Shown: positions 19,713 to 63,248, numbered from the stretch's first letter. The stretch: 64,000 nucleotides of DNA from an uncultured Actinomycetota bacterium (GCA_963822475.1 CAWGHT010000013.1:230226-294225); one strand, 5' to 3'. The notes: a model not told the origin generated them from the letters alone. Program-made: numbers and translations.

Positions 19713-20178
19713 GATTCGCCGCGCGGTGGTCGCGGATGCGGAGATCGTGCTGACCATGTTGCGCGAGCTGGCCGACTATCAGGACCAGGGCGCCTATCTG
19801 ACGGCGAGCGTCGAGGACTGGCAAGGGTTCCTCGGGCGCGAGGAGGTGATCGTGCTGATCGCGGAGTCCGGCGGCGAAGCGGCAGGGTACGTTTCCGCGC
19901 TGCGGCGACCGTACCTGTGGGTCGGCGGGGACCAGTTGGCGTTGGACGATCTCTATGTCCGTGAGCATTTCCGCGACGCCGGCGTCGGACGGAAACTCAT
20001 GCTGGAGCTGGCCCGGCACGCGCTGCCGGACCGGCTACCGATCGGCTGGGGCCTGCGTCTGGAGAACACGGCCGGCTACCGCTTCTACGAACGCCTCGGC
20101 GCCAAACTGGTCACCAAGACCGCAGCCGGCTGGTCCCCCGAGGCGTACGAGGCCCAGCTGACTGACGAGGTCACATAG
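19702..20178 (+). CDS. GNAT N-acetyltransferase
   Basis: LDDLYVREHFRDAGVGRKLM, NTAGYRFYERLG. Confidence 0.9.
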   Translation: MPIEIRRAVVADAEIVLTMLRELADYQDQGAYLTASVEDWQGFLGREEVIVLIAESGGEAAGYVSALRRPYLWVGGDQLALDDLYVREHFRDAGVGRKLMLELARHALPDRLPIGWGLRLENTAGYRFYERLGAKLVTKTAAGWSPEAYEAQLTDEVT

Positions 20179-20986
20179 CTTCGGTTGCCAGGTCCTGCCA
20201 GGCTTCCCAGGTCTTCAGCCGGTCGGCGTAGACCTGTTGCAGCATCGGGTAGCCCTGGGTTCCGAAGAAGATCCGGAGTGGCGGGTTGGGGGTGTCGGCG
20301 AGCTCGAGGATCGCACGGCCGGCCGCGGCGGGGTCGCCGAAGTCGGCCGATGCGACGTACGCCGACAGTGCGTCGCGCAGGTCGTCGTACAGCGGGTTCG
20401 GATCGGAGCGGACTCCGCCGGTGACGCCTTCGGTCGCGTAACCGCCGGGTGCGACCACCGTGACCTTGATGCCGAAGCCGGCGACCTCTTGGGCGAGCAC
20501 TTCGCTCAGTCCTTCCAAGGCCCACTTGGATGCGCAGTAGGCGCCGCCCATCGGGAGCCCCGTCAGGCCGGCCACCGAGGAGATCTGGATGATGCGACCG
20601 TCGCCCTGCTCACGCAGGTACGGGACGGCGGCCTGGGCGACCCAGAGCGGACCGAAGAAGTTCGTCTCGAACTGATCGCGCAACTGCGTCTCTTCGAGTT
20701 CCTCGACCGCTCCGGACAGGCCGTAGCCGGCGTTGTTGACGATCACGTCCAGGCGGCCGAAGTACGCGTGCGCTTGCTCGACGGCCTCGAAGACAGCTGC
20801 CTTGTCGGTGACGTCGAGGGCGAGTGGGAGTACTGCGTCGCCGTACGTCGCGGTCAACTCCGTGAGGCTCGTGCGCGCCGTCGCGGCCACCCGGTCCCCG
20901 CGGGACAGGGCGGCCTCGACGAAGCTGCGGCCGAGGCCGCGGGACGAGCCGGTGACGAACCAGACCTTGCTCTCTTCTGGGCTCAT
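20171..20986 (-). CDS. SDR family oxidoreductase
   Basis: VTGSSRGLG, NNAG, YCASK. Confidence 0.93.
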   Translation of the reverse strand: MSPEESKVWFVTGSSRGLGRSFVEAALSRGDRVAATARTSLTELTATYGDAVLPLALDVTDKAAVFEAVEQAHAYFGRLDVIVNNAGYGLSGAVEELEETQLRDQFETNFFGPLWVAQAAVPYLREQGDGRIIQISSVAGLTGLPMGGAYCASKWALEGLSEVLAQEVAGFGIKVTVVAPGGYATEGVTGGVRSDPNPLYDDLRDALSAYVASADFGDPAAAGRAILELADTPNPPLRIFFGTQGYPMLQQVYADRLKTWEAWQDLATEAM

Positions 20987-45284: not shown

Positions 45285-45354
45285 GTGGTACCCCGATTCT
45301 TTGCCGGCGGGAAGCTCGAGCAGGTGTGACCTGGGCTGTTGTGCGCCGCCAGGT

Positions 45355-49654: not shown

Positions 49655-50916
49655 GCAGCCTTCGCCTCGTCCGACGTACGGCGAGCCTCGTCCTGATCGT
49701 TCTGCTCGGCTGGTTGGCCACTTCGCTGCCGGCCGACGCCGATCAGACCCTGTACAGCCCGGATGCCCCTGACGGCATCGTGGTCAAGATGGACATCGCC
49801 GACGGCTACCGGATCAGTGACGTGGAGGCGGCGTTCCCGGTGGTGGTGGACAGTGCGGTGCTGGCGTCGCGCGGCATCTACCGGGTCCGCCCGACCGATC
49901 CGAAGTATCTCAAGGAGGGCAAGAGCAAGGAGTTGGCGGACAAGATCCAGCACGCTACAGGCGTCGTCTACGCTGAGCCCGACGAGATCGCGAGTCTGCT
50001 GGACACCCGCTTCCATGCCTGGCCCGAGGGAAGCGCCGAGGACGCGGGAACTGATCCAGCGGTCTGGCTCGATCAGCAGGCGATCTCGGAAATGCGCCTC
50101 GGCGAGGCACACCAGGACAGCCTCGGTGCCGGCATCGTCGTCGCCGTACTCGACACAGGTGCAGACCTGAACCACCAAGCGTTGCAGAACCGGCTGGTTC
50201 CGGGCTGGGATTACGTCGACGACGACCCTGACCCTTCGGAGGAGGCGCCGGGCATTCCGGACGGGACGGGACCTTCCGACACGGCCTACGGACATGGCAC
50301 ATTCGTCAGCGGCGTCACCGCGATGGTCGCGCCGGACGCGCGGATCATGCCCCTCCGGGTCCTCGACAGTAACGGGCGGGGCAATGTCTTCGCCGTCGCG
50401 CAGGCCCTGCTCGATGCCGCCGCGGCAGGGGCGCAGGTGGTCAATCTCAGCTTCGGTACGCCGACGAGGCCGTCGAAGCTCCTCGCCGAGACCATCAAAG
50501 ACCTGAAGAAGCGTGGGGTCGTCGTGGTCGCCGCGGCCGGCAACTCCGGAACCGACAAGAAGCAGTACCCGGCCGCGCAGCCGGAGGTGATGAGCGTCGC
50601 GGCGCTGGGAACCGAGAGCGGCGACCTGGCGTCCTTCTCCGGGTTCGGAGAATGGATCGACGTCGCGGCGCCGGGCGACGACATCGCCGGGCCCGTTCCC
50701 GGCGGGCGGTACGCCTGGTGGCGCGGTACGTCGATTGCGGCGCCGTTCGTGGCCGGCCAGGTCGCGCTGGTGCGGTCGATGGCCCCGAAACTCGCGCCCG
50801 CCAAGGTTTTCGAGGCCGTCCTGCGGACGACCGACAAGCTGAACAAGGGCCACAAGGTGCACTCCGGATCGATCGATGTGGTCGGCAGCCTGGACTTCAC
50901 TGCCGCCCACGACTGA
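49651..50916 (+). CDS. Secreted S8 subtilase
   Basis: Signal peptide ending ADA; VAVLDTG (D), GHGTFVSG (H), AAAGN, GTSIAAP (S). Confidence 0.92.
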   Translation: MSSLRLVRRTASLVLIVLLGWLATSLPADADQTLYSPDAPDGIVVKMDIADGYRISDVEAAFPVVVDSAVLASRGIYRVRPTDPKYLKEGKSKELADKIQHATGVVYAEPDEIASLLDTRFHAWPEGSAEDAGTDPAVWLDQQAISEMRLGEAHQDSLGAGIVVAVLDTGADLNHQALQNRLVPGWDYVDDDPDPSEEAPGIPDGTGPSDTAYGHGTFVSGVTAMVAPDARIMPLRVLDSNGRGNVFAVAQALLDAAAAGAQVVNLSFGTPTRPSKLLAETIKDLKKRGVVVVAAAGNSGTDKKQYPAAQPEVMSVAALGTESGDLASFSGFGEWIDVAAPGDDIAGPVPGGRYAWWRGTSIAAPFVAGQVALVRSMAPKLAPAKVFEAVLRTTDKLNKGHKVHSGSIDVVGSLDFTAAHD

Positions 50917-51865
50917 GGGCGCGGGCTGCCCACGCACTGCGGGCGATGTCGTCGAGGTCGTGCACCGCGGTCCAACCCAGTTCGCTGCGAATCTTCGTGG
51001 GGTCGGCGATCACCTGGGCGGCGTCGCCGGCCCGTGCCTCGGCGGCGTGCCGTTCCAGCGGCCGACCAGTCACCCGGCGGACGGCCTGGATCATCTCGAG
51101 AACGCTGGTGCCGGTTCCGGATCCGATGTTGTAGATCGCGCCGACCGGGCCGATCCGCAGCCGGTCGAGGACGCACCGATGCGCGGCGGCGACATCGCTC
51201 ACGTGGACGTAGTCGCGGACACAGGTGCCGTCCGGCGTCGGGTGATCGATGCCGTTGACGGAGATGATCGCGCCGGTCTCGGCAGCCATGAGTAACTTGG
51301 GGATCAGGTTGTCCGTGCCGGTGTCGGCCAGTTCGGGGGTGGCTGCCCCCCCGACGTTGAAGTACCGCAGTATCGCCCAGTCGAGGCCTTCCGCGGTCGC
51401 GGTGTCGCGCAGCAGACGTTCGGCTGCCAGCTTGCTCCAGCCGTACGGCGAGGCTGGCTCGGTCGGCGAGTTCTCGGTGACCGGAGCCGCTGTCACCGGA
51501 CCGTAGACCGCTGCACTGGACGAGAACAGGATCCGTCCGACGCCGCTGGAGACCATCGCGGTCAGAACGCTGTGCAGACCGTGCACGTTGTGGTGCTGGT
51601 AGTCGAGTGGGCGGCGAATCGATTCCGCGACCGACTTCCGGCCGGCGAGGTGGACGATGCCGTCCACGCCGTACGTCGTCAGAACCCGGACCAGCAGCCG
51701 GGTGTCATGGATCGATCCGCCGACGAACGGCACCGTGCCGTCGAGCCGGATGGCGTCGCCGGTGGACAGGTCGTCCACCACCACGACCCGCTCGCCCGCT
51801 CCCTGCAGCGCCCGGACGACATGCGCCCCGATGTACCCCGCACCCCCGGTGACCAACCAGCTCAT
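50897..51865 (-). CDS. galE: UDP-glucose 4-epimerase
   Basis: VTGGAGYIG, FSSSAAVYG, YGWSK, LRYFNVGGA, DGTCVRDYVHV. Confidence 0.9.
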   Translation of the reverse strand: MSWLVTGGAGYIGAHVVRALQGAGERVVVVDDLSTGDAIRLDGTVPFVGGSIHDTRLLVRVLTTYGVDGIVHLAGRKSVAESIRRPLDYQHHNVHGLHSVLTAMVSSGVGRILFSSSAAVYGPVTAAPVTENSPTEPASPYGWSKLAAERLLRDTATAEGLDWAILRYFNVGGAATPELADTGTDNLIPKLLMAAETGAIISVNGIDHPTPDGTCVRDYVHVSDVAAAHRCVLDRLRIGPVGAIYNIGSGTGTSVLEMIQAVRRVTGRPLERHAAEARAGDAAQVIADPTKIRSELGWTAVHDLDDIARSAWAARALSRGRQ

Positions 51866-51885
51866 GAGCCCTCCCCAACCTTGAG

Positions 51886-52935
51886 TCATCCGTCGCGGAA
51901 CCGCAGCACCCGCTTGGCCGTCGTACGCATCGCGCTGTCCAGACCGCTGAACGGGAGCCGCTCGATCCGGTAGGAGTTCGACAGGTGCGGAGTGGCGCCG
52001 AATGCGGTCTTGAAGGCAGCGAGGCCGGATCCGGGCTTGCTGTCGCCCATGTGGTACAGCTGAGCGCCGGTCGCGCAGGCGTCCTCGATGACCTGCTGCT
52101 GCAGGAGGTCGTTGGCCGCGGTCGGCCGTGCGATGCGCTGGTCCATCGCGCCGCGCCAGTACCGGACATGCCGGCCTTGCCGCAGCACGATCAACGCCGC
52201 GGCCGGTTCGTCGCCGAGCCAGGCCACCCAGATCGCACACCGCTCGCCGAGGTGACGCGCGACCGTCGCGAACTTGCGCTGTGGATTCGCACGATCGGCG
52301 CGCCACCTCGCGAGCGCGAGCGGCTCGTGCTGCTGCGCCGCCCAACGATCGACCGACAGCCGGTAGAGGTGGTCGAACGCGTCGACCAGCCGGCCGGTTC
52401 TGTCCACCTCGACCCGCAGGCCGGAGCGCCCGGCTTTGCGGACGGCCCCGCGCACGTTGGTGCGGAACTTGCTCTTCCAGAGCGCCTCGTACCCGCAACG
52501 GAGATCGAGGCAGTAGCTGATGTGCTCGGTGACCGCGAAACTCGCCGGCGGTCGACGCCATGCCGTTGCGGCGAAGGGGCCCGGCCGGAGGGTGAGGCGA
52601 AGCCCGTGGCGGGCCAGCAGTTCGTTGTACACGAGTTCTACGTGCGTGTCGTCGATGGGGCCGTCGCTCAGCGGGCCGCCGATTCCCCAGTCGAACGGCC
52701 AGGACGACTCGACGGCGCAGGCAGCGGGTAGTGGGCGGCGAGCGGCGAATGGCAGGATCAGGCGGCGGCCGTCGTCGAAGCGGTAGAACCGGCTGCTGTC
52801 GCGATAGGGACCGACCTCGCAGATCGCGGCGAGCCACTCGGGCGTCTGCGCGGAGCCCGCTTCGGGATCGAGTGCGAGGATCTCGCGCCAGACGCCGGCC
52901 GGTGCCGGGCTCAGCACCTCGACGAGCTTCACCAT
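51886..52935 (-). CDS. FemAB/BcsL-like tandem GNAT (Acetyltransf_6)
   Basis: FRTNVRGAVRKAGRSGL, YWRGAM, NDLLQ, GLAAFKTAFGA. Confidence 0.8.
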   Translation of the reverse strand: MVKLVEVLSPAPAGVWREILALDPEAGSAQTPEWLAAICEVGPYRDSSRFYRFDDGRRLILPFAARRPLPAACAVESSWPFDWGIGGPLSDGPIDDTHVELVYNELLARHGLRLTLRPGPFAATAWRRPPASFAVTEHISYCLDLRCGYEALWKSKFRTNVRGAVRKAGRSGLRVEVDRTGRLVDAFDHLYRLSVDRWAAQQHEPLALARWRADRANPQRKFATVARHLGERCAIWVAWLGDEPAAALIVLRQGRHVRYWRGAMDQRIARPTAANDLLQQQVIEDACATGAQLYHMGDSKPGSGLAAFKTAFGATPHLSNSYRIERLPFSGLDSAMRTTAKRVLRFRDG

Positions 52936-55523
52936 CGTGACCTCCGGGCAGCGAGTACGGCGAGCCGCGCGGTGCGGACCGGCAATCCGCGAAGGCCATC
53001 CTCGCGCAGGCCGAGGATGGCGAGCATCACGGCTGATCGGGATGGAACTTCCGGTCCGCGGCATCGGTCACACTCACCGGGACCATGCCCCAACAGCTCG
53101 GTGCACGCCTCGGCAAGTCCGCTCTGGTACTCGCCGGCGGCGATCACGAATCCGGCGTCGCGGACTGCCGGCGCTGCGTTCCGGGGTGCCCGAGCCAGGT
53201 GTGCGAGTCCGAACATCGACACGTCCTCGGCGGTGTCGCCGACCGCGAGTGCGAAGCCGGGCGGCCGGGATCGCTGCGGGTCGAGCGACGAGGCGAACTC
53301 TCGCAGGCCGGTGCCTTTGTCGACGCCGATCGGAACGATGTCCGTTTGGCCGTCGCCGGGCACGATGCGGACCTTCGCAAGAAGCTCCGCGCCGAGCTGC
53401 TGGAGGATGTCGTCCGGCAGCGGACCGCCGGACGAGTGGGAGGCCCGCACCACGTAGCGGTAGCGGTCGTCAAGTCGTACGTCGGGCAAGGCGGCCAGCC
53501 GGCAGCGGATGAACTCGATGGCCTGGCCCGCGGAGGTGCTGCGGAGATCCGTCGAACGGTGCGAGCGATGGTCGTAGCTGACTGCGCCGTACTCGGCGAC
53601 AGCTCCTCGAAGGCCGAATGCCGTACATCGTGCGGCGGCCTCGGGCAGGCTCCGGCCGGTCGCGAGAATCGGGCGGAAACCATGGGTGGCCAGCGCTCGC
53701 AGGGCGAGCACACCGGCCGGGGACGGGTTCGGAAATCCGAGGGGATCCGTCTCTAGGGTGCCATCGAGGTCGATCGCACACAGTTCGCCGCCACCGTCGA
53801 GCCCGGTCGCGTCCAGGGCCGACGCGAGATAGTCGCAGACAGCTGTCGCGGACAGATCGTCGGCGCGTTGCCGGTGGAGGTCACCGGCCCGGCGCATCCG
53901 CCACAGATGCGCGAGCCGGTAGATCAGCCAGCGTTCGCCGTCGACGGTCCGTCCGGTCCGGCGCTCGTAGGTCGTCCGCAACATGGCCTCGAACCCGGGG
54001 GACGGTGGATCGGCGGACGCCCCCGCCAGATCGAAGATCTCGTCGTAGCAGCCGAGCTCCAAGCTCCCGAACGACCGCTCGTCGAAGCCGACCTTGCGCA
54101 GTTGGTCGCCTGGCAGCCAGAACCGGACGTCGGTCTGGCCGTCGGGGACGCTCGGCGCTGTCGTCCGCAAGAGCCCGCGGACGATGCCGTCCAGCAGCAG
54201 CACCTGGCCGGCTGGCGCGAGCCGGCCGAACATCCCGCTGAGGAGGCCGGCCGCGACCTCCCAGACCGGAGCGCGGCCGCGAAGTCGCGCGACCGGGTCA
54301 CGATCGACTCGCAGCGCACGGCCACGATCGGAGACATAGCGCACCACGCCTGCCGCGAGTACCTGCTCATCCGGGCGTTTCAGCGCTGCCGGGAGCCACT
54401 CGCGGTACAGCAGCCCATCCGCGAGGCCGTAAGTCCGCGGGCAGTGCTGGGGCAGGCGGTTCGCGACCGTCACGGCATGCCGCCCGAAGTATCCGAGCCC
54501 GGCACCTTCTACTGCGATCTCGCTCGGCCGGGTCGTTCCGTCGGGACCGGTGATCCGTACGGTGTACCTCGCGCGCGCCCGGCTCCGTCGCGTGTTTCCT
54601 GACTGCCAGGGGACGGCTCGGGCCTCAACCAGGTGGCCAGGACCCAGCAGGGACTCGAGTTGCGCGGCGACTGCGGGTTCGCGCAGGCGGGAATGTACGG
54701 TCCACTCCGACCACGGCAGATAGACGCCGGCCCATGGCTCGAGCGCGGGCGGAGGATTCTGCCCGGCGAGTGCCAGCAGCATCACGATGCGGTCCTCGGG
54801 CAGGCCGATCGCGGTAGCGGCAGCGGCCAGCGCGCTGCCGGTCACCGGCGGGTCGTCGACCAGGACCACGTGTCCACCGGCCGCGGCGACTTCGCGCAGG
54901 ACGCCTCGCTCCTCGCGCCGCAGCCCGCGGCCCGGCCGGTAGCTGAGCAGCGAGGCGGTCACCGACCGGGCCCGCAACGCTGCGACGCACAGCGGTGCGA
55001 GATAGCTGCCCGAGGTGCGGATCCCGACCACGCAGACCGGAGTGCCGGTGCCGAATCGATCCACGAAGCGACCGGCGAGCTCGGCGATGTCGTCCGGATG
55101 CTGGTCGAAGCTGCGGAAACACGACGGCACCCGGAGCACGTCGTCCGTCCGTGGCAGCCGGAGCTCGTCGAGCCCGAGGTGGCCGGCAGGGCCGTTGCCG
55201 AGGACGGCCGCGGCCAGCGAGATCGTTGCCTCGCCCAACGAGCGCCGGGTTGCGTGGAGTGCCGGCGGGACAGGTGCCTGGAGGAGGCGCGCGGCGGCGC
55301 CGGCAACCAGGCCGCCTGCGCGGGCCCCGCGGCCGTGCAGGTAGTCGGCCGCGCGCCGCAACAGCAGGGGGTCGGGATGAAGGCGGTCCTCGACGAGTTG
55401 GTGCAGGCCGGCGGCGAGCAGGTAGGCGTCGAGCCAGTCGCCCGCGGCGGCGGCCCGGCGGAGTTGCCCGGTGAGTTCGTCGGCGGTCATCAGCAGGTCG
55501 AGGGGTTGCCAGGGAGTCGTCAC
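52929..55523 (-). CDS. 864-aa multidomain protein: PRTase-like + kinase-like + HAD-IIB phosphatase
   Basis: VGIRTSGSY and VVLVDDPPVTGS; GLLYREWLP...VPDGQ...LRKVGFD; IDLDGT, ATGR, DKGTG, GDTAED; GTG start overlaps the upstream TGA. Confidence 0.75.
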   Translation of the reverse strand: MTTPWQPLDLLMTADELTGQLRRAAAAGDWLDAYLLAAGLHQLVEDRLHPDPLLLRRAADYLHGRGARAGGLVAGAAARLLQAPVPPALHATRRSLGEATISLAAAVLGNGPAGHLGLDELRLPRTDDVLRVPSCFRSFDQHPDDIAELAGRFVDRFGTGTPVCVVGIRTSGSYLAPLCVAALRARSVTASLLSYRPGRGLRREERGVLREVAAAGGHVVLVDDPPVTGSALAAAATAIGLPEDRIVMLLALAGQNPPPALEPWAGVYLPWSEWTVHSRLREPAVAAQLESLLGPGHLVEARAVPWQSGNTRRSRARARYTVRITGPDGTTRPSEIAVEGAGLGYFGRHAVTVANRLPQHCPRTYGLADGLLYREWLPAALKRPDEQVLAAGVVRYVSDRGRALRVDRDPVARLRGRAPVWEVAAGLLSGMFGRLAPAGQVLLLDGIVRGLLRTTAPSVPDGQTDVRFWLPGDQLRKVGFDERSFGSLELGCYDEIFDLAGASADPPSPGFEAMLRTTYERRTGRTVDGERWLIYRLAHLWRMRRAGDLHRQRADDLSATAVCDYLASALDATGLDGGGELCAIDLDGTLETDPLGFPNPSPAGVLALRALATHGFRPILATGRSLPEAAARCTAFGLRGAVAEYGAVSYDHRSHRSTDLRSTSAGQAIEFIRCRLAALPDVRLDDRYRYVVRASHSSGGPLPDDILQQLGAELLAKVRIVPGDGQTDIVPIGVDKGTGLREFASSLDPQRSRPPGFALAVGDTAEDVSMFGLAHLARAPRNAAPAVRDAGFVIAAGEYQSGLAEACTELLGHGPGECDRCRGPEVPSRSAVMLAILGLREDGLRGLPVRTARLAVLAARRSRW

Positions 55524-56275
55524 GGCAACCACCTCCCGGTCCGGCGGTACAGCCGCCACAGCTTGGTGGTGAGGAGGTCGCGTGGTCTGGCCACGCGGAC
55601 CTGCCCGGCCAGCCAGTTGGTGAGCGTCTCGTCCGTCGTCGCCCGGGTGACGGTCAGCCGGGCGATGGTGAACGGTGGATCGCAGTCCGGGCTGAGGGCG
55701 TTCTTCACCGAGCAGGCGGACCGGTAGCCGGCGTCGGCGACGAGACGCCGTACCGCAGGGCTGGAGTAGCCGTGCGGATAGGCGAAGCTGTGGATCGGCT
55801 GCCCGAGCTGCTGCTCGAGATCGCGACGACAGTGCGTCACCTCGTTCCACACTGCCGCCGGGCGGAGCGTATCGAGCTCGGGGTGGGTCACCGAGTGCGC
55901 GCCGATCTCGTGCCCCAGCACCGCGAGCTCCCTGATACCGGACCAGCTGAGCATCCGGTCTCCGCCAGGGCTGCGACCGCAGACGAATCCCGTGGTGACG
56001 TAGACGGTCGCGGGGAAGTCGTGTGCCAGGAGCAGCGGTGCGGCGGCTTCGAGGGTGTCGGCGAAGCCGTCGTCGAAGGTGATGACGACGGGCTTCGCGG
56101 GCAGCTGTCGCTGCGCCAGGGCGGTGCGCAGCGCGGTCAGGGTGATCGCGTTGAGCCCGGCAGCCCTGATCAGCTGAAGGTGCCGGCTGAAGGTCTGCGG
56201 TGTGACGGTGAACTGCTCGATCCAGACCGATGGCGTCCGGCTCACCGAGTGATACAGGAGGATGGGGACGTTCAT
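55520..56275 (-). CDS. Polysaccharide deacetylase (NodB/CE4)
   Basis: LLYHSV, ITFDDG, GAHSVTHP, FAYPHG. Confidence 0.92.
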   Translation of the reverse strand: MNVPILLYHSVSRTPSVWIEQFTVTPQTFSRHLQLIRAAGLNAITLTALRTALAQRQLPAKPVVITFDDGFADTLEAAAPLLLAHDFPATVYVTTGFVCGRSPGGDRMLSWSGIRELAVLGHEIGAHSVTHPELDTLRPAAVWNEVTHCRRDLEQQLGQPIHSFAYPHGYSSPAVRRLVADAGYRSACSVKNALSPDCDPPFTIARLTVTRATTDETLTNWLAGQVRVARPRDLLTTKLWRLYRRTGRWLP

Positions 56276-56517
56276 CGGTGCCTGCCTCGGGGGATGGGCA
56301 GAAGGGCGCCGACCAGCGTCAGGACAACAAGCACGAGGAGCAGCCTGGACGCCGACCACACGCCGGCGATGGCCAGTGCCTCGGATCCGATCGCGGTGAC
56401 CGCGAGGCTCGTTGCCACGATGAGCAGCCGGCGCAGCGGGGGGTCGAGGTCCAGTCGGCGGACCAGCGCCCAGCCAGGCGCCAAGGCGATGAACGCGAAC
56501 ACGACGATCGCTCTCAT
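56272..56517 (-). CDS. Small 3-TM membrane protein
   Basis: Hydrophobic, LAPGWAL motif, 4-bp overlaps on both sides. Confidence 0.7.
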   Translation of the reverse strand: MRAIVVFAFIALAPGWALVRRLDLDPPLRRLLIVATSLAVTAIGSEALAIAGVWSASRLLLVLVVLTLVGALLPIPRGRHR

Positions 56518-59084
56518 CGAGCCACGCCGGGACGGACGTAGATCGTGGCATCCTGATTACGGAATGCGACCCGATAGCCCTTCGTGCCGGCCAGGACGTC
56601 GTCGAGCCGCGGCACCGCGTTGGCGGGGAGTACGCCGGTGTAGCGCACGGAAACCTGTTGGGACTTCGTGAGGACGACGTAGACCGCTGTACGGGACGGC
56701 GGGCCGGCCACCTCCTCGATCGCCGTCAACGGTGCGGAGGCGGCGAGTGGTTTGCGGTTCGGCGGGAGGTTCTCGAGGAACTCGTACCGGTAGTCCTCGT
56801 AGTGCGTGAACGCCCAGGGGAAGTTGGCGGTCGCGGCGACGACCAGTGAGTCGCGCGGTGCGTGCGCGTACAGCCAGGTCGAGGCCGCGACCTCGTCGGG
56901 GGTGAAACGGTTCGCTCGTTCCTTGCCGTAGTACGCCAGGGTGAACGCCGCGGCGATCGCCAGAACGCAGATCAACGCTACCGGCAACGACCATCGGGCT
57001 GGTCGGGGCGAGTAGACGAATCCGGCGGCGAGCAGGGCGCAGAAGGGCAGTGCGAACAGGTAGATGCGGAACAGCATCTCGCCGCCGTAGCTGTTCATCG
57101 CGAGCAGGGGGAGCGGGCTGATCGCGAGTACGGCGCTGACCCGGATCGGTGCCGCCGCACGCCGGAGGCGAACAGCTCCGGCGATCGCCAGGATGCCCAG
57201 GCACGCGGTCAGACCGCGATCGGCGAGCAGGACCAGGCGTTGCTCTGGTCCCGCCTGGCTGAGATCGACGAACGTCGTCTGGGTGTTCGACGCCGGACGC
57301 CCGATCGACTCGACGATCCAGTAGAGGTTCTGACCGAGGAACTGGGTTGCCATCAAATAGATCCATGCTCCGGTGAGTCCGGCCAGCGCCAGCGGCAGCC
57401 AGACAGGCCGGACCTGCCTGATCAAGACGAGCAGGGTCAAGGCCGACAACAGCATGAACGGTGTGAGTTGGTGACTGCTGACGATGGCGAGCATCAGCAG
57501 GAGCACGATGCCTATGAGCGCCCGGCGGTGGCGTCTGGCCGTGGGCCCGAGTCGCCGCAGGCAGATGGCGAGGACGGTCAGATGCAGTACGTACGCGAAC
57601 GCCTGAGGAGAGAAGTACTCCTGCCCGATCCAGTTGCCCAGTACGAACAACAGGAGCGCGAACCAGACCCGGCGTCGATCATTGCTGAAGTGGTCGAAGA
57701 TCAGCCACAAAGGCACGAGCATCAAGGCCGTGTTCACAACCGGTGCCCAGCCCGCGTAGCTCAGCGTGGCGACCCCTGAGGCCTTCGTCAGCTCCGCGTT
57801 CAGCGCGAAGAAGCCCGGCCAGGCGTGATAGGCGTTCAGGGTCTCGATGTTGGGGTTCACCGCCGCGTGCCGGTCGATGTAGTCGACGATGCCGATGTGC
57901 TTCCACGCCCAGGAATACCGAAGGGTTCCGTACAGCAACGTAGGCGTGCCGTGCAGTACGACGATCAGCGCGAGCAGGTAGCCGGCAGGCACGAGGCGGC
58001 GATGAATGGTGATCACCGCGCCACAGAGGATCGTCACCAACGCAATCCAGAACGCGACGGGCAGCACACTGACCAGACCGAGATCCGTCATCGCATCGAG
58101 GTCGACCGACGGCAAGGACAACGCCCACACGAGAAGCGCAGCAACCACCGGCAGGTGCGCCAGCACCGTCTGCCGATGGGGGAGCGCCCGTCCGACCGCG
58201 TAGCCGAACGAGGTCGCCGCCAGTCCGGCGACCACTGCGGCGCCACGGCGCCCGCCGGCCAGCAGTCCGTGTGGCAGGACTCGGCGCACATAGTCGCGCT
58301 CGGAAGACAACGCGGCTGTGCGGCCGGCGACCCGCGCCACCGTCGCCTTCGAGAGACCCTCCGAATAGCAACGCGACCGGAAGTACGACCACGTCGCGCG
58401 TTCCGAGGGCACGTGATGGCGAACCTTGGCCCGTGGGTCGTGCAACAGCACCCCCTGCGGGAACGCGGCCGCGGCCCGGATGCAGAGTTCGGTCTCCTCG
58501 CAGCCGACCGGCCGCTGTCCGACCCTGCCGAGTTCCGGGCGGAACCCGCCGACCGTCGCCAGCACCGATCGGCGGAAGGACATGTTCGCGCCGACGAAGT
58601 TGCGCACGGCCGCGGTTGTTCGTGGCAGTCCCGAATGGCTGCAACCGATCACCCAGTCGAACTCGGGCGGAAACCATCGCGGTCGGCCGGTTGCCCAGGC
58701 TGGATCGACGTGGCCGCCGACGCCCAGGACGGCGGGATCGGCGTACTCCTCGGTCAGTCGTTCGAGCCAGTCGGGTTCGGCCACCGCGTCGTCGTCCAGG
58801 AACGCCACGATGTCCGACGTACTGGCGTCGACGCCGGTATTGCGCGCTCCGGAGAGACCGCGAGGGCCGTCGCTCTCGACAATGCGGATGCCCTCCAGAC
58901 CACGAGCGCGGTCGGCGAGCTCGGTCGAGTGGTCTACGACCAGGACGACTTCGGCGGCGGGCTGGGTCTGCGTCAGCACCGAGGTGATCGCGTCCACGAT
59001 CTGGGCCCAGCGCTCGACGGTGTAGCAGCAGATCACCACAGAGACCGTGGGGATCGGCGGTGCGCTCGTGACCGTGGCCGTCAT
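56514..59084 (-). CDS. GT2 glycosyltransferase fused to a multi-TM (polymerase/GT-C-like) domain
   Basis: VVICCYT, AFLDDD, GCEETELC; then about 12 TM with YSWAWKHIG, AYHAWPGFF, YFSPQAF. Confidence 0.85.
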   Translation of the reverse strand: MTATVTSAPPIPTVSVVICCYTVERWAQIVDAITSVLTQTQPAAEVVLVVDHSTELADRARGLEGIRIVESDGPRGLSGARNTGVDASTSDIVAFLDDDAVAEPDWLERLTEEYADPAVLGVGGHVDPAWATGRPRWFPPEFDWVIGCSHSGLPRTTAAVRNFVGANMSFRRSVLATVGGFRPELGRVGQRPVGCEETELCIRAAAAFPQGVLLHDPRAKVRHHVPSERATWSYFRSRCYSEGLSKATVARVAGRTAALSSERDYVRRVLPHGLLAGGRRGAAVVAGLAATSFGYAVGRALPHRQTVLAHLPVVAALLVWALSLPSVDLDAMTDLGLVSVLPVAFWIALVTILCGAVITIHRRLVPAGYLLALIVVLHGTPTLLYGTLRYSWAWKHIGIVDYIDRHAAVNPNIETLNAYHAWPGFFALNAELTKASGVATLSYAGWAPVVNTALMLVPLWLIFDHFSNDRRRVWFALLLFVLGNWIGQEYFSPQAFAYVLHLTVLAICLRRLGPTARRHRRALIGIVLLLMLAIVSSHQLTPFMLLSALTLLVLIRQVRPVWLPLALAGLTGAWIYLMATQFLGQNLYWIVESIGRPASNTQTTFVDLSQAGPEQRLVLLADRGLTACLGILAIAGAVRLRRAAAPIRVSAVLAISPLPLLAMNSYGGEMLFRIYLFALPFCALLAAGFVYSPRPARWSLPVALICVLAIAAAFTLAYYGKERANRFTPDEVAASTWLYAHAPRDSLVVAATANFPWAFTHYEDYRYEFLENLPPNRKPLAASAPLTAIEEVAGPPSRTAVYVVLTKSQQVSVRYTGVLPANAVPRLDDVLAGTKGYRVAFRNQDATIYVRPGVAR

Positions 59085-61258
59085 CGCGACACCTCGCGAA
59101 GAACCGGTACGACGTTCCGGCGCAACCAGATCGGGCTCGCGGCGTACCGCCCGGACTTTGTCAGGTTGCCGGTGACGTGGCGCAGCCAGCCGAGCAGCAG
59201 CAACGCGCGACCGGTCGCCTCGTTCGGTGAACCCAGCAGCGCGCGCTCCTGATCGGTCCAGCAGTGTTCACGCCGGAGCCGGTCGACGACCCGGCGGCCG
59301 AGTTCACGGCGGTCGGTGGTCGCGGTCAGCAGCCACAGGACGTTGTCCAGGGCAACGATGCTGTCCGTGGCCTGATCCCAGTCGACGATGCCGCTGACCA
59401 GGCCGGCGTCGTACAGGACGTTGCCCGGGTGGAAATCGCCGTGCGTCCAGCCCATCTGGACGGTCTGTCCGAGCAGCGTGCTGTCAAGGTCTGCTGCCAC
59501 TGAGTCGACGGCGCGACGTAACCACTCGGTACCCACGGCCCCGCGAAGGACGGCTGCGGGCACATCCACGAGCTCGTCCAGGTGAACGGCGTCCAGCGTG
59601 ACGCGTCGGCTGGTTCGGTCGTGGAGGCAACGGATCGCGTCGAGGGCGCCAACTGACTCGGCGACAGACACGTGCCGACCGGGGAGTCCCGGAAGCTTCG
59701 CGGTCACCAGGTATCCGTCGCCGCCCTCGATCACACTCGGCAAGAGACGCCTCCACTGTCCGAGTCGGTCGTCGACCGTCAACTGGGAGAGGACGCTGTG
59801 CTCGCGGTTCAACGCGGCCGCACCCACGCGGGTGTCGCTCGCGCGCAATACCGCGTCGTCGAGCATCACGACAGCGGAGTCCGACGCCGACGGCAGCACG
59901 CGTTCGATCACGCCGCCGCGGCGCGACCGTGCGACCGCGGCCGCTGCCACCGCCTTGCGTGGTGTGGTTCGTACGAAGCGCAGCTCGCGGGCCAGCACGA
60001 CTCCGGCCAGAAGCGTCTCGGCCACCAGCCAGCCCGCCCCGGCGCCGGCGATCCCGATCCGGGGCACCGCGACCACGGTGATCCCGACCACGATCGCTCC
60101 GGTGGCGATCAGGTACCAGGCGACCTCGCCGGTACGGCGTTCGGCCCGGGCGCGACTGATCGCGAGGGACACGACGGCATTCGGTATGACCGAAAGGATC
60201 AGCAGCCGCAACGTCGTCGTACCGTGGCTCGCGTACCAGTCGCCAAAGGTGGCCAGCAGCCATGGAGCGCCCGCGACGAGCAGCAACACCGCTGGCGTCA
60301 ACAGGTTCAGCATGTGCCGGCGCAGCTGCCGGTACTGCGGCGGCAGGCGATCGGGATCCTTCGCGCCGGCTGCCACCAGTGCCTGACCGAACGCCGCGGG
60401 CACGTGGAATGCCGCCAGGCAGATCGACCAGGGCAAGGCGAATGCCGCCGATTCGGCGGGTCCGGTGAGCCCGAGCACGAGCACCGGGACGAGCGTCGTA
60501 CTCGCCACCCAGCACAACGAGCCGACGTAGTCCGGCCCGATGAAACGCATCAGGTCGGCCACTGACACGACCTCACGCCTGGGCCCGTGGGCGAACCGGG
60601 GTATGGCGCGACGGCCGAGGTAGACCGTGGTGCCGGCGACGGCGACCATCAGGCCGATGACCCAGGACAGCCAGATCCCGTTGCTCCCAGCAACCACTGC
60701 GAGGATGGCGACAAGGGACAGCTTGAGTACGGCGAAGACCAGGTTCTCGGCCGGCACCGCGGTGGCCCGGCCGAGCGCGACGAGCACATTGTCCTGCATG
60801 ACGAAGATCGCCGCACAGCCGGTGGCGATCGCGAACAGCACCGCCGAAGCCCCGGAACGGACCAGTCCGGCGAGCTCAGGCGCCCATACCGGCACGCCGA
60901 GGACGAAGACCGTCCCGGCGACGACGCTCAAGCCGCCGCCGAGCAGGTACGAGCGGACGATCATGGTCTTCGCCGCGGGGCCCGAGGTGGGAAGAAAGCG
61001 CAGCAGGGCGCTCATCAGGTTGAGCTGGGCACAGCCGGCCAGGAACATCATCGCGGAGATCGCCGCCGCGTTGCGGCCGACCGCCTCCGGTGGGTAGAAG
61101 CGCGCAGCCACGAGCCAGTAGACGATGCCGACCACACCGGTCAGCACCGAGCTGGCGACCAGCAGGTGTCCACTGCGGAAGAGGGGTTGTCGCCAGCGTT
61201 CCGTGTGGGCGCTGACGAATCGCTGAAGGGAGCGGCTTCCGATCGCGCCCGTGGTCAT
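59081..61258 (-). CDS. Wzx/MATE-like flippase fused to an APH-family phosphotransferase
   Basis: About 12 TM (LNLMSALLRFLP); C-terminal WTHGDFHPGNV and IVDWD. Confidence 0.85.
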   Translation of the reverse strand: MTTGAIGSRSLQRFVSAHTERWRQPLFRSGHLLVASSVLTGVVGIVYWLVAARFYPPEAVGRNAAAISAMMFLAGCAQLNLMSALLRFLPTSGPAAKTMIVRSYLLGGGLSVVAGTVFVLGVPVWAPELAGLVRSGASAVLFAIATGCAAIFVMQDNVLVALGRATAVPAENLVFAVLKLSLVAILAVVAGSNGIWLSWVIGLMVAVAGTTVYLGRRAIPRFAHGPRREVVSVADLMRFIGPDYVGSLCWVASTTLVPVLVLGLTGPAESAAFALPWSICLAAFHVPAAFGQALVAAGAKDPDRLPPQYRQLRRHMLNLLTPAVLLLVAGAPWLLATFGDWYASHGTTTLRLLILSVIPNAVVSLAISRARAERRTGEVAWYLIATGAIVVGITVVAVPRIGIAGAGAGWLVAETLLAGVVLARELRFVRTTPRKAVAAAAVARSRRGGVIERVLPSASDSAVVMLDDAVLRASDTRVGAAALNREHSVLSQLTVDDRLGQWRRLLPSVIEGGDGYLVTAKLPGLPGRHVSVAESVGALDAIRCLHDRTSRRVTLDAVHLDELVDVPAAVLRGAVGTEWLRRAVDSVAADLDSTLLGQTVQMGWTHGDFHPGNVLYDAGLVSGIVDWDQATDSIVALDNVLWLLTATTDRRELGRRVVDRLRREHCWTDQERALLGSPNEATGRALLLLGWLRHVTGNLTKSGRYAASPIWLRRNVVPVLREVSR

Positions 61259-62466
61259 CGCCGGGTCACCTCGCGGTAACGCCAACGACTCCACGCGTAG
61301 GCGGCAGGGCCGACACAGATCCCCAGCCGCTCGCGCCAGACGAGCTCAGCCGGAAAGTCGTTGCCACGGCCAACATTCCGGACCGATCCGGGTGAGAGCA
61401 GATGCCGCAGCGCCGGAACCGCGCGCCGTGTCATCGTGATGGCGTCGCGCGGATTCCGGCGTACCGCCGCCGACAGGTACGCACCGAGCCCGACGCCGTA
61501 CCCGTAGGCCTGGCGCCGCAGGCTCGCGTAGTCGCGCCGGTGGTGATGCCGGACGATCGCGGCCGGTTCGTAGACGAGGGTGCGGCCGTCGAGCACGACG
61601 CGCAGGAACGCGTCGAGGTCATCGCCGCCCTTGGCCGGCGTGCCAGCACCGGTCGCCGGATCGAAGCCCCCGTTCGTGCGCAGCCAATCGGTGCGGAAGG
61701 CCATGTTGGCGCCGGAGCCGAAGCGACCGGCGGTGAACGGGAACAGGCGGTCGGCCGGTGGCCTGCGCAGGCTGTAGGTCCGGGGCTCGTACCCTCGAGC
61801 GAACCCGCCGGCGTCCTCGATCCACCGTTGCGCCGCCGTCTCCAGTTCGGCCGGGAGGATCAGGCCGGTCACGCACGCCACCTCGGCGTCCGTGAACGGT
61901 CTGCTGATCGCTGCCAGCCAGTGTGGATCGATCTCCACGTCGTCGTCGGTGAAGGCGGCGATCGTACCGGTCAGGTGTTCGATCGCGACGTCGTGCGCAT
62001 AGCCGAGACCCGGCCGGTCCGCTCGCACATACCGGGGCGAGAACGGCCAGCGGTCGACGGACTCCCGCAACGTTCGGTCGGTACGGTCACTCGACGGCGC
62101 GCTGTCGACGACAACGACGTCGTACGACGGATGCGCGCACGTCGCCAGCGTGTCGAGGCATCGGACCAGGCCGGCCGGCCGCTCCCGGGTGGCGATCACG
62201 ACGGTCGCGGTCGGAGGATCGACGGGCCGAGGTACGACATGACCGGACGTCGTGCCGAGTTGTTCGGCGACCGCTCGGCGAAGGTCGTCCGCGGTCGGTG
62301 TGCTGCCGATGCGGAGATGGATCTCTCCCAACGGTCGCTCGCGGGAGCGGACCAGCAGGCGCGCGGCGCCGTATCCGCTCGTGTTGCCGAGGGGCGGATC
62401 CGGCCACGGACGGTCCAGGTGCAGATCGCCGACGAGAATCCGCCGGCCGCCGGACGGACCGCTCAC
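61255..62466 (-). CDS. GT2 glycosyltransferase
   Basis: VVIATRER, VVDSAP, AFTDDD, GSGANMAF, GGDDLD. Confidence 0.9.
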   Translation of the reverse strand: MSGPSGGRRILVGDLHLDRPWPDPPLGNTSGYGAARLLVRSRERPLGEIHLRIGSTPTADDLRRAVAEQLGTTSGHVVPRPVDPPTATVVIATRERPAGLVRCLDTLATCAHPSYDVVVVDSAPSSDRTDRTLRESVDRWPFSPRYVRADRPGLGYAHDVAIEHLTGTIAAFTDDDVEIDPHWLAAISRPFTDAEVACVTGLILPAELETAAQRWIEDAGGFARGYEPRTYSLRRPPADRLFPFTAGRFGSGANMAFRTDWLRTNGGFDPATGAGTPAKGGDDLDAFLRVVLDGRTLVYEPAAIVRHHHRRDYASLRRQAYGYGVGLGAYLSAAVRRNPRDAITMTRRAVPALRHLLSPGSVRNVGRGNDFPAELVWRERLGICVGPAAYAWSRWRYREVTRR

Positions 62467-63248
62467 TCCGCGACCAGCCAGGTCCGCCGAGCTGCCTTGG
62501 CAAGCTTCCCCGGGTGATCGGTGAGGAGCGCGGAGAGGACGCGGCGGCCGTCGCGGATCGCGTGCAGGTTCGAGTGGCCGCTGCGACGAGGCAGTTCGAG
62601 GCTCGGCACCTCCGCGATCCGCAGACCCGCCTGCACCGCATGGACAGTCATCTGGGCCTCGATCTCGAACCCGGACGCACTCAGTTTCAGGTGCTCGAGG
62701 AACCGCCGGTCGAAGGCGCAGAAGCCGTAGCACAAGTCCGTCAGCTTGGTGTCGTACAACATGTTCATCGCCGCGAGCAGGGCCCGATTGCCCCAGCGGC
62801 GGAACGGAGTGATGTCGAGAGAGCCTCCGCCGCCGATGAATCGCGAGCCCTTGACGAAGTCGTAGCCGTTGGCAAGGAAATGCAGGTAGTGCGGGATCTC
62901 CCCCGGAGACATGCTGCCGTCGGCGTCCATCATCACCACGACATCGCCGGTGCACGCCTCGAACCCGGTCCGCAGTGCCGTCCCCTTCCCCGGACCGGAC
63001 TGGGCGATCACCCGGACGTCTGGCCGGCAGGTGAGCGCCATCGCGGTCGTCGCGTCCACGGAGTCGCCGTCCACGAGCACGATTTCGTCAATGCAGGAAG
63101 GGATCTGACTGAGTACCCATACGAGATTGCGGGCTTCGTTCTTTACTGGGATGACAAGACTCACCGTCGTACGTTCCGGTGGCCTGCGGGCGGTTGCTGG
63201 TGAGCGTGTGCGGTTGTTCGGCGGCGTGGCAGAATCCGTCGCGGTCAT
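62463..63248 (-). CDS. GT2 glycosyltransferase (DPM-synthase-like initiating GT)
   Basis: VIPVKNE, VDGDSVD, GKGTAL, MDADGS, FEIE. Confidence 0.92.
   Translation of the reverse strand: MTATDSATPPNNRTRSPATARRPPERTTVSLVIPVKNEARNLVWVLSQIPSCIDEIVLVDGDSVDATTAMALTCRPDVRVIAQSGPGKGTALRTGFEACTGDVVVMMDADGSMSPGEIPHYLHFLANGYDFVKGSRFIGGGGSLDITPFRRWGNRALLAAMNMLYDTKLTDLCYGFCAFDRRFLEHLKLSASGFEIEAQMTVHAVQAGLRIAEVPSLELPRRSGHSNLHAIRDGRRVLSALLTDHPGKLAKAARRTWLVAE

Follow-up and report, generated by a model that had tools for sequence, protein, structure and literature searches.

A PRTase-like, kinase-fold and HAD-IIB fusion protein in an actinobacterial glycan operon, a candidate for PRPP-dependent ribosylation

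Ribofuranose and other pentofuranoses in bacterial glycans have only recently been traced to enzymes that depend on phosphoribosyl pyrophosphate (PRPP), and to our knowledge two unrelated types of transferase are known for glycan pentofuranose, the gPRT/CriT type and the UbiA type. Here we compare with them an 864-amino-acid (aa) protein encoded on the minus strand of a 64,000-nucleotide stretch of DNA from an uncultured Actinomycetota bacterium (GCA_963822475.1 CAWGHT010000013.1:230226-294225; the whole stretch is called the window below), in which a phosphoribosyltransferase (PRTase)-like domain, a kinase-fold domain and a HAD-IIB phosphatase domain are fused. Three systems, PRP-gPRT, CriT-CrpP and PPPRS-PRP, transfer ribose-5-phosphate from PRPP and then remove the 5-phosphate with a HAD-type phosphatase (PMC11127046, PMC11294581, PMC10299916). 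The product of the membrane-bound PPPRS-PRP pair is undecaprenyl-phosphate-ribose (PMC11127046), and the Salmonella ribofuranose polymerase STM0726 works with an inactive enzyme-fold helper, STM0725 (PMC11294581). From its motifs and genomic context, we read the fusion protein as an enzyme that works in the cytoplasm, probably close to the membrane, in a lipid-linked glycan pathway and would carry out a net two-step ribosylation there, a reading that we favor with a little less than even confidence.

An earlier note, made from the sequence alone, had proposed one gene with a three-domain layout, and both the translation and the positions of the motifs agree that 52929-55523 (minus strand) is a single real gene carrying every motif quoted there: VGIRTSGSY (residues 166-174), VVLVDDPPVTGS (219-230), VPDGQ (459-463), KVGFD (477-481) and the HAD motifs DLDGT (585-589), TGR (622-624), DKGTG (735-739) and GDTAED (762-767). 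These are not chance matches: across 60 diverse relatives, R169, T170, S171, G172, D223, D224 and P226 never vary. The open frame reaches back to 55850, beyond the GTG start codon at 55523, ahead of which lies a GGGAGG ribosome-binding site, and an 85%-identical homologue shares the N-terminal MTTPW. Because the GTG and the TGA stop codon of the deacetylase gene upstream overlap in GTGA, and the downstream FemAB-like gene begins with an ATG at 52935 (GGAGG ahead of it) within an ATGGTGA overlap, with the stop codon of the fusion gene at 52929-52931, translation of the gene is coupled to that of both neighbors. With 39 homologues as input, AlphaFold2 gives a full-length model of high confidence along its whole length (mean predicted local distance difference test score [pLDDT], 91.0; predicted template modeling score [pTM], 0.90), and the high pTM implies a predicted packing of the modules into a single body. 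The PRTase, kinase-fold and HAD parts of the proposed layout are all present in the model, but the count of three does not stand: there are five modules, with a helical bundle and a Cys/His tail in addition. The features of the gene, all on the minus strand, are as follows.

52929..55523, minus strand: whole gene, 864 aa plus stop (open reading frame and translation; full-length homologues begin at the same point)
55203..55523, minus strand: N-terminal five-helix bundle, residues 1-107, with an invariant D46 (AlphaFold2 secondary structure)
54645..55139, minus strand: type I PRTase-like alpha/beta domain, residues 129-293 (PF00156, Foldseek and profile matches)
55002..55028, minus strand: VGIRTSGSY, putative loop for pyrophosphate binding, following the first strand (residue conservation and position in the fold)
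54834..54869, minus strand: VVLVDDPPVTGS, PRPP (ribose-5-phosphate) binding motif (conservation and alignment to the OPRT motif)
53814..54632, minus strand: bilobal alpha+beta kinase-fold domain without the canonical phosphotransfer residues, residues 298-570 (Foldseek and column counts)
54480..54512, minus strand: VEGAGLGYFGR, Gly-rich loop joining a strand to a helix (G342, G344 and G347 in 58/58 relatives)
54081..54149, minus strand: VPDGQ...RKVGFD, where a kinase would have its catalytic loop and DFG region (column counts)
53091..53783, minus strand: HAD-IIB (Cof-type) phosphatase, residues 581-811, alpha/beta cap, motifs I-IV intact (Pfam, PDB and Foldseek)
52929..53090, minus strand: C-terminal tail, residues 812-864, with GHGPGECDRC and two basic/hydrophobic helices (AlphaFold2 model and conservation)

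The N-terminal catalytic domain has a PRTase fold with an intact PRPP-type site, as had been suspected from the VVLVDDPPVTGS loop and the VGIRTSGSY segment that precedes it, both of which are conserved in 60 relatives. PF00156 is detected in 18 of 39 relatives at E ≤ 0.1 (best E, 3.3e-6), and family profiles searched against the PDB return classical type I PRTases only (OPRT, 0.036; PyrR, 0.055; purine PRT, 0.065; APRT, 0.07), with the segment DDPPvsGsS of the protein aligning on the PRPP motif VvVvDDVattGtS of OPRT 2yzk. A separate AlphaFold2 model of residues 1-296 (60 sequences; pLDDT, 91.7) gave Foldseek matches that are almost all HGPRT, XGPRT or HPRT structures (E 5.7e-4 to 1e-2). Column counts over 60 sequences, with identity down to 34%, show that R169, T170, S171, G172 and Y174 are invariant, as is the R196-P197 pair in the loop after the second strand, while in VVLVDDPPVTGS D223 and D224 are found in 60/60, P226 is invariant, Ser or Thr occupies position 228 in 59/60, and G229 is present in 56/60. 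Type I PRTases bind pyrophosphate in the loop after the first strand, and from its position in the modeled fold VGIRTSGSY may well be that loop. Selection would then be acting on both halves of the site, the one that takes pyrophosphate and the one that takes the 5-phosphate, and because both are conserved we expect a PRPP-using enzyme, which fits this pattern better than a nucleotide sensor does.

With the classical type I PRTases and regulators (APRT, HGPRT/XGPRT, OPRT and PyrR), the domain shares the fold, with its five-stranded alpha/beta core, and the PRPP motif of a hydrophobic strand, two Asp residues and S/T-G-x-S/T. It differs from them in the unusual Pro-Pro within that motif and in the hood region, which is replaced by an invariant CFRSFDQxPxD segment; it also scores below the Pfam cut-off and is embedded in an 864-aa multidomain protein of a glycan operon.

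The C-terminal HAD-IIB domain is complete, as the earlier note had held, and carries a C2B cap. It passes the Pfam Hydrolase_3 cut-off (40.4 bits versus 20.9), and motifs I to IV are conserved in nearly every relative, with D587, G588, G623, R624, D763, D767 and T/S622 present in 39/39 and D585 and K736 in 38/39. The best sequence match in the PDB is YidA (E 2.9e-10), and Foldseek places 1wr8 first (E 2.3e-8; TMt, 0.76), with sugar phosphatases and trehalose-6-phosphate phosphatases (T6PPs) coming next, so that the nearest HAD structures are sugar-phosphate phosphatases (YidA, T6PP and SupH). The HAD-IIB synthase-phosphatase pairs that make trehalose-6-phosphate, sucrose-6-phosphate and mannosyl-3-phosphoglycerate likewise proceed from transfer through a phosphorylated product to dephosphorylation, often with the phosphatase fused, and T6PP structures of the trehalose-6-phosphate pathway are among the best fold matches here. 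In those pairs, though, the donor is a nucleoside diphosphate sugar and the phosphate sits on the acceptor-derived part, whereas in the present protein it would arrive with the PRPP-derived ribose.

From the folds, the conservation of catalytic residues, the architecture and the operon context that we observe, we infer a donor, an acceptor, an order of steps and a product. The type I PRTase domain would bind PRPP-Mg and transfer ribose-5-phosphate to a pathway acceptor, either polyprenyl phosphate itself or a sugar within an oligosaccharide that polyprenyl phosphate carries; the fused HAD-IIB domain would then take off the 5-phosphate. The kinase-fold domain has lost the residues for ordinary ATP phosphotransfer and would most likely be an acceptor- or phosphate-binding and scaffolding module. 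Such ribosylation logic fits best because a PRPP-type transferase is fused to a sugar-phosphate phosphatase within a glycan operon. The earlier proposal of a novel glycan ribofuranosyltransferase is supported in part, namely in its folds, motifs, HAD domain and glycan operon, but a finished glycan as the acceptor is not favored over polyprenyl phosphate or a lipid-linked oligosaccharide.

Two relatives with additional N-terminal domains support the proposed ribosylation of a lipid-linked glycan: P0173 (1192 aa) carries a GT2 domain and P0259 (1088 aa) a membrane PAP2 domain, with the fold usual for lipid-phosphate phosphatases. Both are metagenome representatives whose gene calls could be read-through artefacts, and both sequences are continuous without a break.

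Several points weigh against this reading. The protein itself matches PF00156 with E 0.0095 and 15.7 bits, under the gathering cut-off of 26.3, and the Foldseek scores of the PRTase domain are modest (best E, 5.7e-4; TMt, 0.38 to 0.48). Classical PF00156 enzymes form N-glycosidic bonds to bases or are regulators, and we know of no established O-ribosylating member. No ribose-containing glycan is known from the carrier taxa. The invariant Asp and Arg residues, the Lys and the Gly-rich loop of the kinase-fold domain hint at a catalytic or ligand site that the model leaves unexplained, and the operon also holds a bona fide kinase, of the APH type.

The proposed transfer-then-HAD logic is that of PRP-gPRT (Klebsiella/Thermobacillus composti prototype; Salmonella STM0726), which is likewise cytoplasmic and encoded in a glycan locus (PMC11127046, PMC11294581). 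The parts, in contrast, are different: in PRP-gPRT the phosphatase is N-terminal and has a helical cap (PMC11127046), whereas here the PRTase is N-terminal and the phosphatase C-terminal, of the HAD-IIB type and with an alpha/beta cap; the transferase is a relative of classical type I PRTases and not a gPRT, and the protein adds the kinase-fold domain, the helical bundle and the Cys/His tail. To the kinase-fold accessory we compare STM0725, the helper of STM0726 (PMC11294581). No gPRT or Bcs3 chain appeared in the PDB profile searches (E ≤ 1 to 10) or among the best 50 Foldseek matches, and with this and its different HAD subfamily the protein falls outside the gPRT-PRP family, although it may work alike from different parts. 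The claim that the architecture is a different one holds, with neither the PRTase nor the HAD domain belonging to the gPRT/PRP families of known ribofuranosyltransferases.

A similar picture emerges for CriT-CrpP (Bcs3 of Haemophilus influenzae type b), in which CriT O-ribosylates from PRPP and the HAD-like CrpP dephosphorylates, the same logic as we propose here, and in which the alpha/beta core of CriT resembles PRTases of nucleotide synthesis (PMC10299916). Unlike our protein, CriT is embedded in helical bundles, is partnered by a TagF-like polymerase and has no kinase-fold module. In the PPPRS-PRP system (Citrobacter youngae ORF15) and the mycobacterial DPPRS/Rv3807c pair, PRPP-derived ribose is placed on a carrier, dephosphorylated, flipped and used outside (PMC11127046), and these three-component systems resemble the present locus in that the fusion gene is tightly linked to a transporter and a multi-transmembrane (TM) protein. 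They differ in that PPPRS and DPPRS are integral UbiA-family membrane proteins with about nine TM helices and that their transporter is a 4-TM SMR-like protein, compared with a 13-TM protein fused to an APH kinase in our operon. A TM scan of the fusion protein found no TM segment, with no hydrophobic stretch passing, which sets it apart from the UbiA-type PPPRS.

It is possible, though we consider it rather doubtful, that the protein represents a third, independently evolved PRPP-ribose machine for surface glycans, acting at the membrane face on a polyprenyl-phosphate-linked substrate and passing its product to the transporter-kinase fusion. Were this true, it would add a further convergent solution, composed of a classical PRTase fold, a different phosphatase subfamily and a kinase-fold accessory, and would provide the first O- or phosphate-directed enzyme in the classical PRTase family. 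It would also imply an undescribed pentofuranose-containing glycan in soil Actinomycetota, Chloroflexota and Dormibacterota, with the family serving as a sequence marker for unknown pentose-containing glycans of soil bacteria.

The gene lies within a conserved glycan and glycosyltransferase operon, confirming by Pfam and NCBIfam annotation and by partner counts what had been noticed at first reading. Partner counts come from tblastn co-occurrence tables over those 55 related loci that extend 8 kb or more to both sides of the fusion gene, and some 80% of these loci share the partners. In operon order along the minus strand, with the fusion gene between the deacetylase and the FemAB-like gene, the neighbors are as follows.

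62463-63248, minus strand: AglJ/PpgS-like GT2, of the polyprenyl-phosphate hexose synthase type, GtrB/AglJ-like (AglJ E 1.4e-38)
Next in order, minus strand: MftF-like GT2 (43/55 related loci)
59081..61294, minus strand: 13-TM membrane domain fused to an APH-type kinase, 737 aa (Pfam APH E 1.5e-11, TM scan; APH domain in 44/55 and 13-TM domain in 39/55 related loci)
56514..59084, minus strand: AglG-like GT2 with a ~12-TM domain and a ~130-aa soluble tail (NCBIfam AglG E 3e-66, TM scan; GT2 in 43/55 and membrane domain in 45/55 related loci)
55520..56551, minus strand: polysaccharide deacetylase, PgaB/IcaB-like, upstream (Pfam Polysacc_deac_1 E 8e-25; within 10 kb of the fusion gene in 42/55 related loci)
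51886..52935, minus strand: FemAB-like acyltransferase, downstream (Pfam Acetyltransf_6; 32/55 related loci)
50897-51865, minus strand: GalE, the last ~322 codons of a 700-aa open frame, passing the NCBIfam equivalog cut-off (24/55 related loci)

The operon looks like one that builds an oligosaccharide on polyprenyl monophosphate and then exports it, and the same gene set is present in Rhodococcus spelaei and in a metagenome-assembled genome (MAG). The APH domain of the 13-TM fusion has intact HGDFHPGN and DWD motifs, while its membrane domain has no Pfam match. Likewise, the C-terminal 556 aa of the AglG-like fusion have no Pfam, NCBIfam or PDB sequence match and could be a GT-C-like transferase or polymerase. 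The 700-aa open frame at 50897-52999 (minus strand) was rejected as a gene, being a high-GC artefact whose remaining part is filled by the FemAB-like gene in another frame.

The acceptor is the point at which the strongest alternative departs, as a sub-variant of the proposed ribosylation: the PRTase would phosphoribosylate polyprenyl phosphate, the HAD domain would remove the 5-phosphate, and the resulting polyprenyl-phosphate-ribofuranose would be flipped by the transporter and used outside the cell by the membrane domain of the AglG-like GT2, so that the protein would be a soluble equivalent of the UbiA-type PPPRS-PRP. No partner is linked more tightly than the transporter-APH gene, which directly adjoins the fusion gene in most related loci, and polyprenyl phosphate as the acceptor would explain this link; the PAP2 domain of P0259, the multi-TM domain with a soluble tail in the operon and the basic/hydrophobic C-terminal helices, which could touch the membrane, all point the same way. 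So does the published three-component logic of a synthase plus phosphatase, a flippase and a GT-C enzyme with a carbohydrate-binding module (PMC11127046). Against it stand the missing TM segment, when the known polyprenyl-phosphate phosphoribosyltransferases are integral UbiA-family proteins, the GtrB/AglJ-like polyprenyl-phosphate hexose synthase of the operon, which could already supply the membrane domain, the lack of a detectable GT-C signature in that domain and the epimerase, which scores as a genuine GalE, and we therefore regard a lipid-donor product as unlikely, although it is the alternative that survives best. We also considered the GalE-like gene as an analogue of ORF13, the epimerase for undecaprenyl-phosphate-ribofuranose, which is unlikely given its genuine UDP-glucose 4-epimerase score and its linkage in 24/55 loci.

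The middle of the protein has a kinase-like layout with degenerate motifs, as described earlier and as the fold match and column counts agree. Foldseek with the full model finds the fructosamine-3-kinase 3f7w (E 1.2e-4; TMt, 0.56) and choline kinases (~4e-4), and the domain is assigned to the kinases by its fold, since Pfam (58 members) and the PDB profile search give no match and hhalign, in global and local mode, is negative against the APH domains of neighboring genes (probability 0.1). Paralogy between the fusion protein and the neighboring 737-aa APH fusion was rejected, as BLASTP finds no match. With the positions assigned by motif order and not by structural superposition, the "DLA" segment of APH-type kinases has its counterpart in CYDxxFDLA, the catalytic loop in VxDGxT and the Mg-binding Asp region in RKV(D/G)F. 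In these terms the catalytic loop, HxDxxxxN in canonical kinases, keeps D461 only (58/58), with no Asn five residues further, the Mg-binding (DFG-type) position 479 is Asp in 30/58 relatives and Gly in our protein, and the beta3 strand has no conserved Lys, position 339 being a mixture of Glu, Gln and Lys. The label pseudo-kinase therefore holds at the family level, because the beta3 Lys, the Asn and a constant DFG-type Asp are missing.

Even so, the domain is not decaying and has a conserved pocket, with R400, D461 and D494 invariant, like G342, G344 and G347, and K477 present in 54/58. These residues leave room for another explanation, in which the kinase fold, like other "pseudokinases" that have acquired new chemistry, would be an atypical active kinase or nucleotidyltransferase that, with the HAD domain, makes or edits a phosphosugar or nucleotide-like precursor, while the PRTase supplies the ribosyl moiety of a small-molecule carrier, with no decoration of a glycan. 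That its nearest structures are small-molecule kinases and that HAD-IIB enzymes often act on free phosphosugars would both be in line with such a role in precursor metabolism. However, the losses listed above and the lack of sequence similarity between the domain and any kinase family speak against it, and related loci show no consistent linkage to genes for a nucleotidyltransferase or for other steps of precursor synthesis, so that we judge this explanation less likely still than a polyprenyl-phosphate acceptor.

The same degeneracy of the kinase motifs could also mean that the phosphatase is the only catalytic module and that the PRTase-like and kinase-like modules are sensing or scaffolding pseudoenzymes tuning it to PRPP or nucleotide status. 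PyrR and PurR use a PRTase fold to sense PRPP or nucleotides, and PyrR-type regulators are among the closest sequence matches of the family. We find this improbable, since both phosphate-binding loops, the acidic pair and R196 are conserved over deep divergence, which fits catalysis better than sensing, and the strict linkage to glycosyltransferases and the transporter argues for a pathway step. Least credible of all, and very improbable, is N-ribosylation, in which the deacetylase would expose a glucosamine amine, the PRTase would form N-ribosyl-5-phosphate glucosamine, the HAD domain would dephosphorylate it and the fructosamine-kinase-like domain would bind the glycosylamine or ketoamine: type I PRTases do use N nucleophiles, the gene is translationally coupled with the deacetylase gene and fructosamine-3-kinase is the best structural match of the middle domain, but all of this is circumstantial, about one related locus in four lacks the deacetylase, and a free amine would more obviously be used by the FemAB-like acyltransferase.

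The N-terminal bundle has no Pfam match, and the PDB profile search matches designed helical bundles only. In the tail, GHxxGxCxxC is invariant in relatives (H813, C818 and C821 being its invariant residues), and the tail may bind metal or touch the membrane.

Among 1.84 billion representatives (clusters at 50% identity), the search gave 1108 matches, 520 of them below 1e-30, with the alignment full-length in nearly all of the best 150 and some sequences plainly partial, and the domain architecture is fixed across more than 500 such clusters. When we sought shorter relatives without the HAD domain, using a sub-alignment of the PRTase and kinase-fold domains, the best 120 matches were all full-length family members. 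Scanning one genome per species, we find carriers in 187 of 185,579 species (~0.1%), so that the family is large in sequence space and rare among species. Carriers include Nocardia, Rhodococcus, Amycolatopsis, Pseudonocardia, Streptomyces, Streptacidiphilus and Terrabacter, as well as Thermoleophilia, Acidimicrobiia, Chloroflexota and Dormibacterota. The genome to which the window belongs (8.49 Mb) has a single copy, and the family is absent from 400 evenly sampled genomes of the phylum and from 24 genomes of the same genus. The part of the window from ~45.3 to 64 kb, which holds an ECF sigma/CHAT/S8 cassette and the glycan operon, has no DNA counterpart in 25 congeners, placing the operon in an accessory region that looks island-like; conserved DNA ends near 45,285, and the ~1.3 kb before that point are 75 to 94% identical in several congeners.

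Public records name the family "HAD family hydrolase" or "hypothetical protein," with a few JGI entries reading "PRPP-binding protein," and since the names hardly go beyond the HAD domain, ~575 conserved residues are effectively unannotated. Our literature search returned no paper on the family or its architecture and no relevant paper on ribofuranose-containing glycans of actinomycetes. With several domains that have no family assignment, the operon is a compact target for experimental glycobiology, for which laboratory actinomycetes that are not pathogenic would serve.

Finally, we made some observations on the neighborhood in their own right. The GT2s of the operon score best against archaeal Agl enzymes (AglJ, 1.4e-38; AglG, 3e-66) and PpgS, scores that suggest an oligosaccharide pathway linked to polyprenyl monophosphate, of the haloarchaeal N-glycosylation type, in a bacterium. 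Clustering of stop-to-stop open reading frames (ORFs) in 81 loci, which is confounded by antisense shadow ORFs and fused frames in high-GC DNA, yielded only rph-rdgB synteny and a phosphoesterase-like ORF in 21 loci; the latter is predicted to be secreted, is ~330 aa long and lies ~3 kb downstream of the fusion gene (for example, at 19834-20835, minus strand, in locus L053). In one MAG, a 653-aa protein encoded after GalE (locus L002, 14785-16746, plus strand) has an inosine-uridine nucleoside hydrolase domain and a faint purple-acid-phosphatase N domain, a possible ribose-related link.

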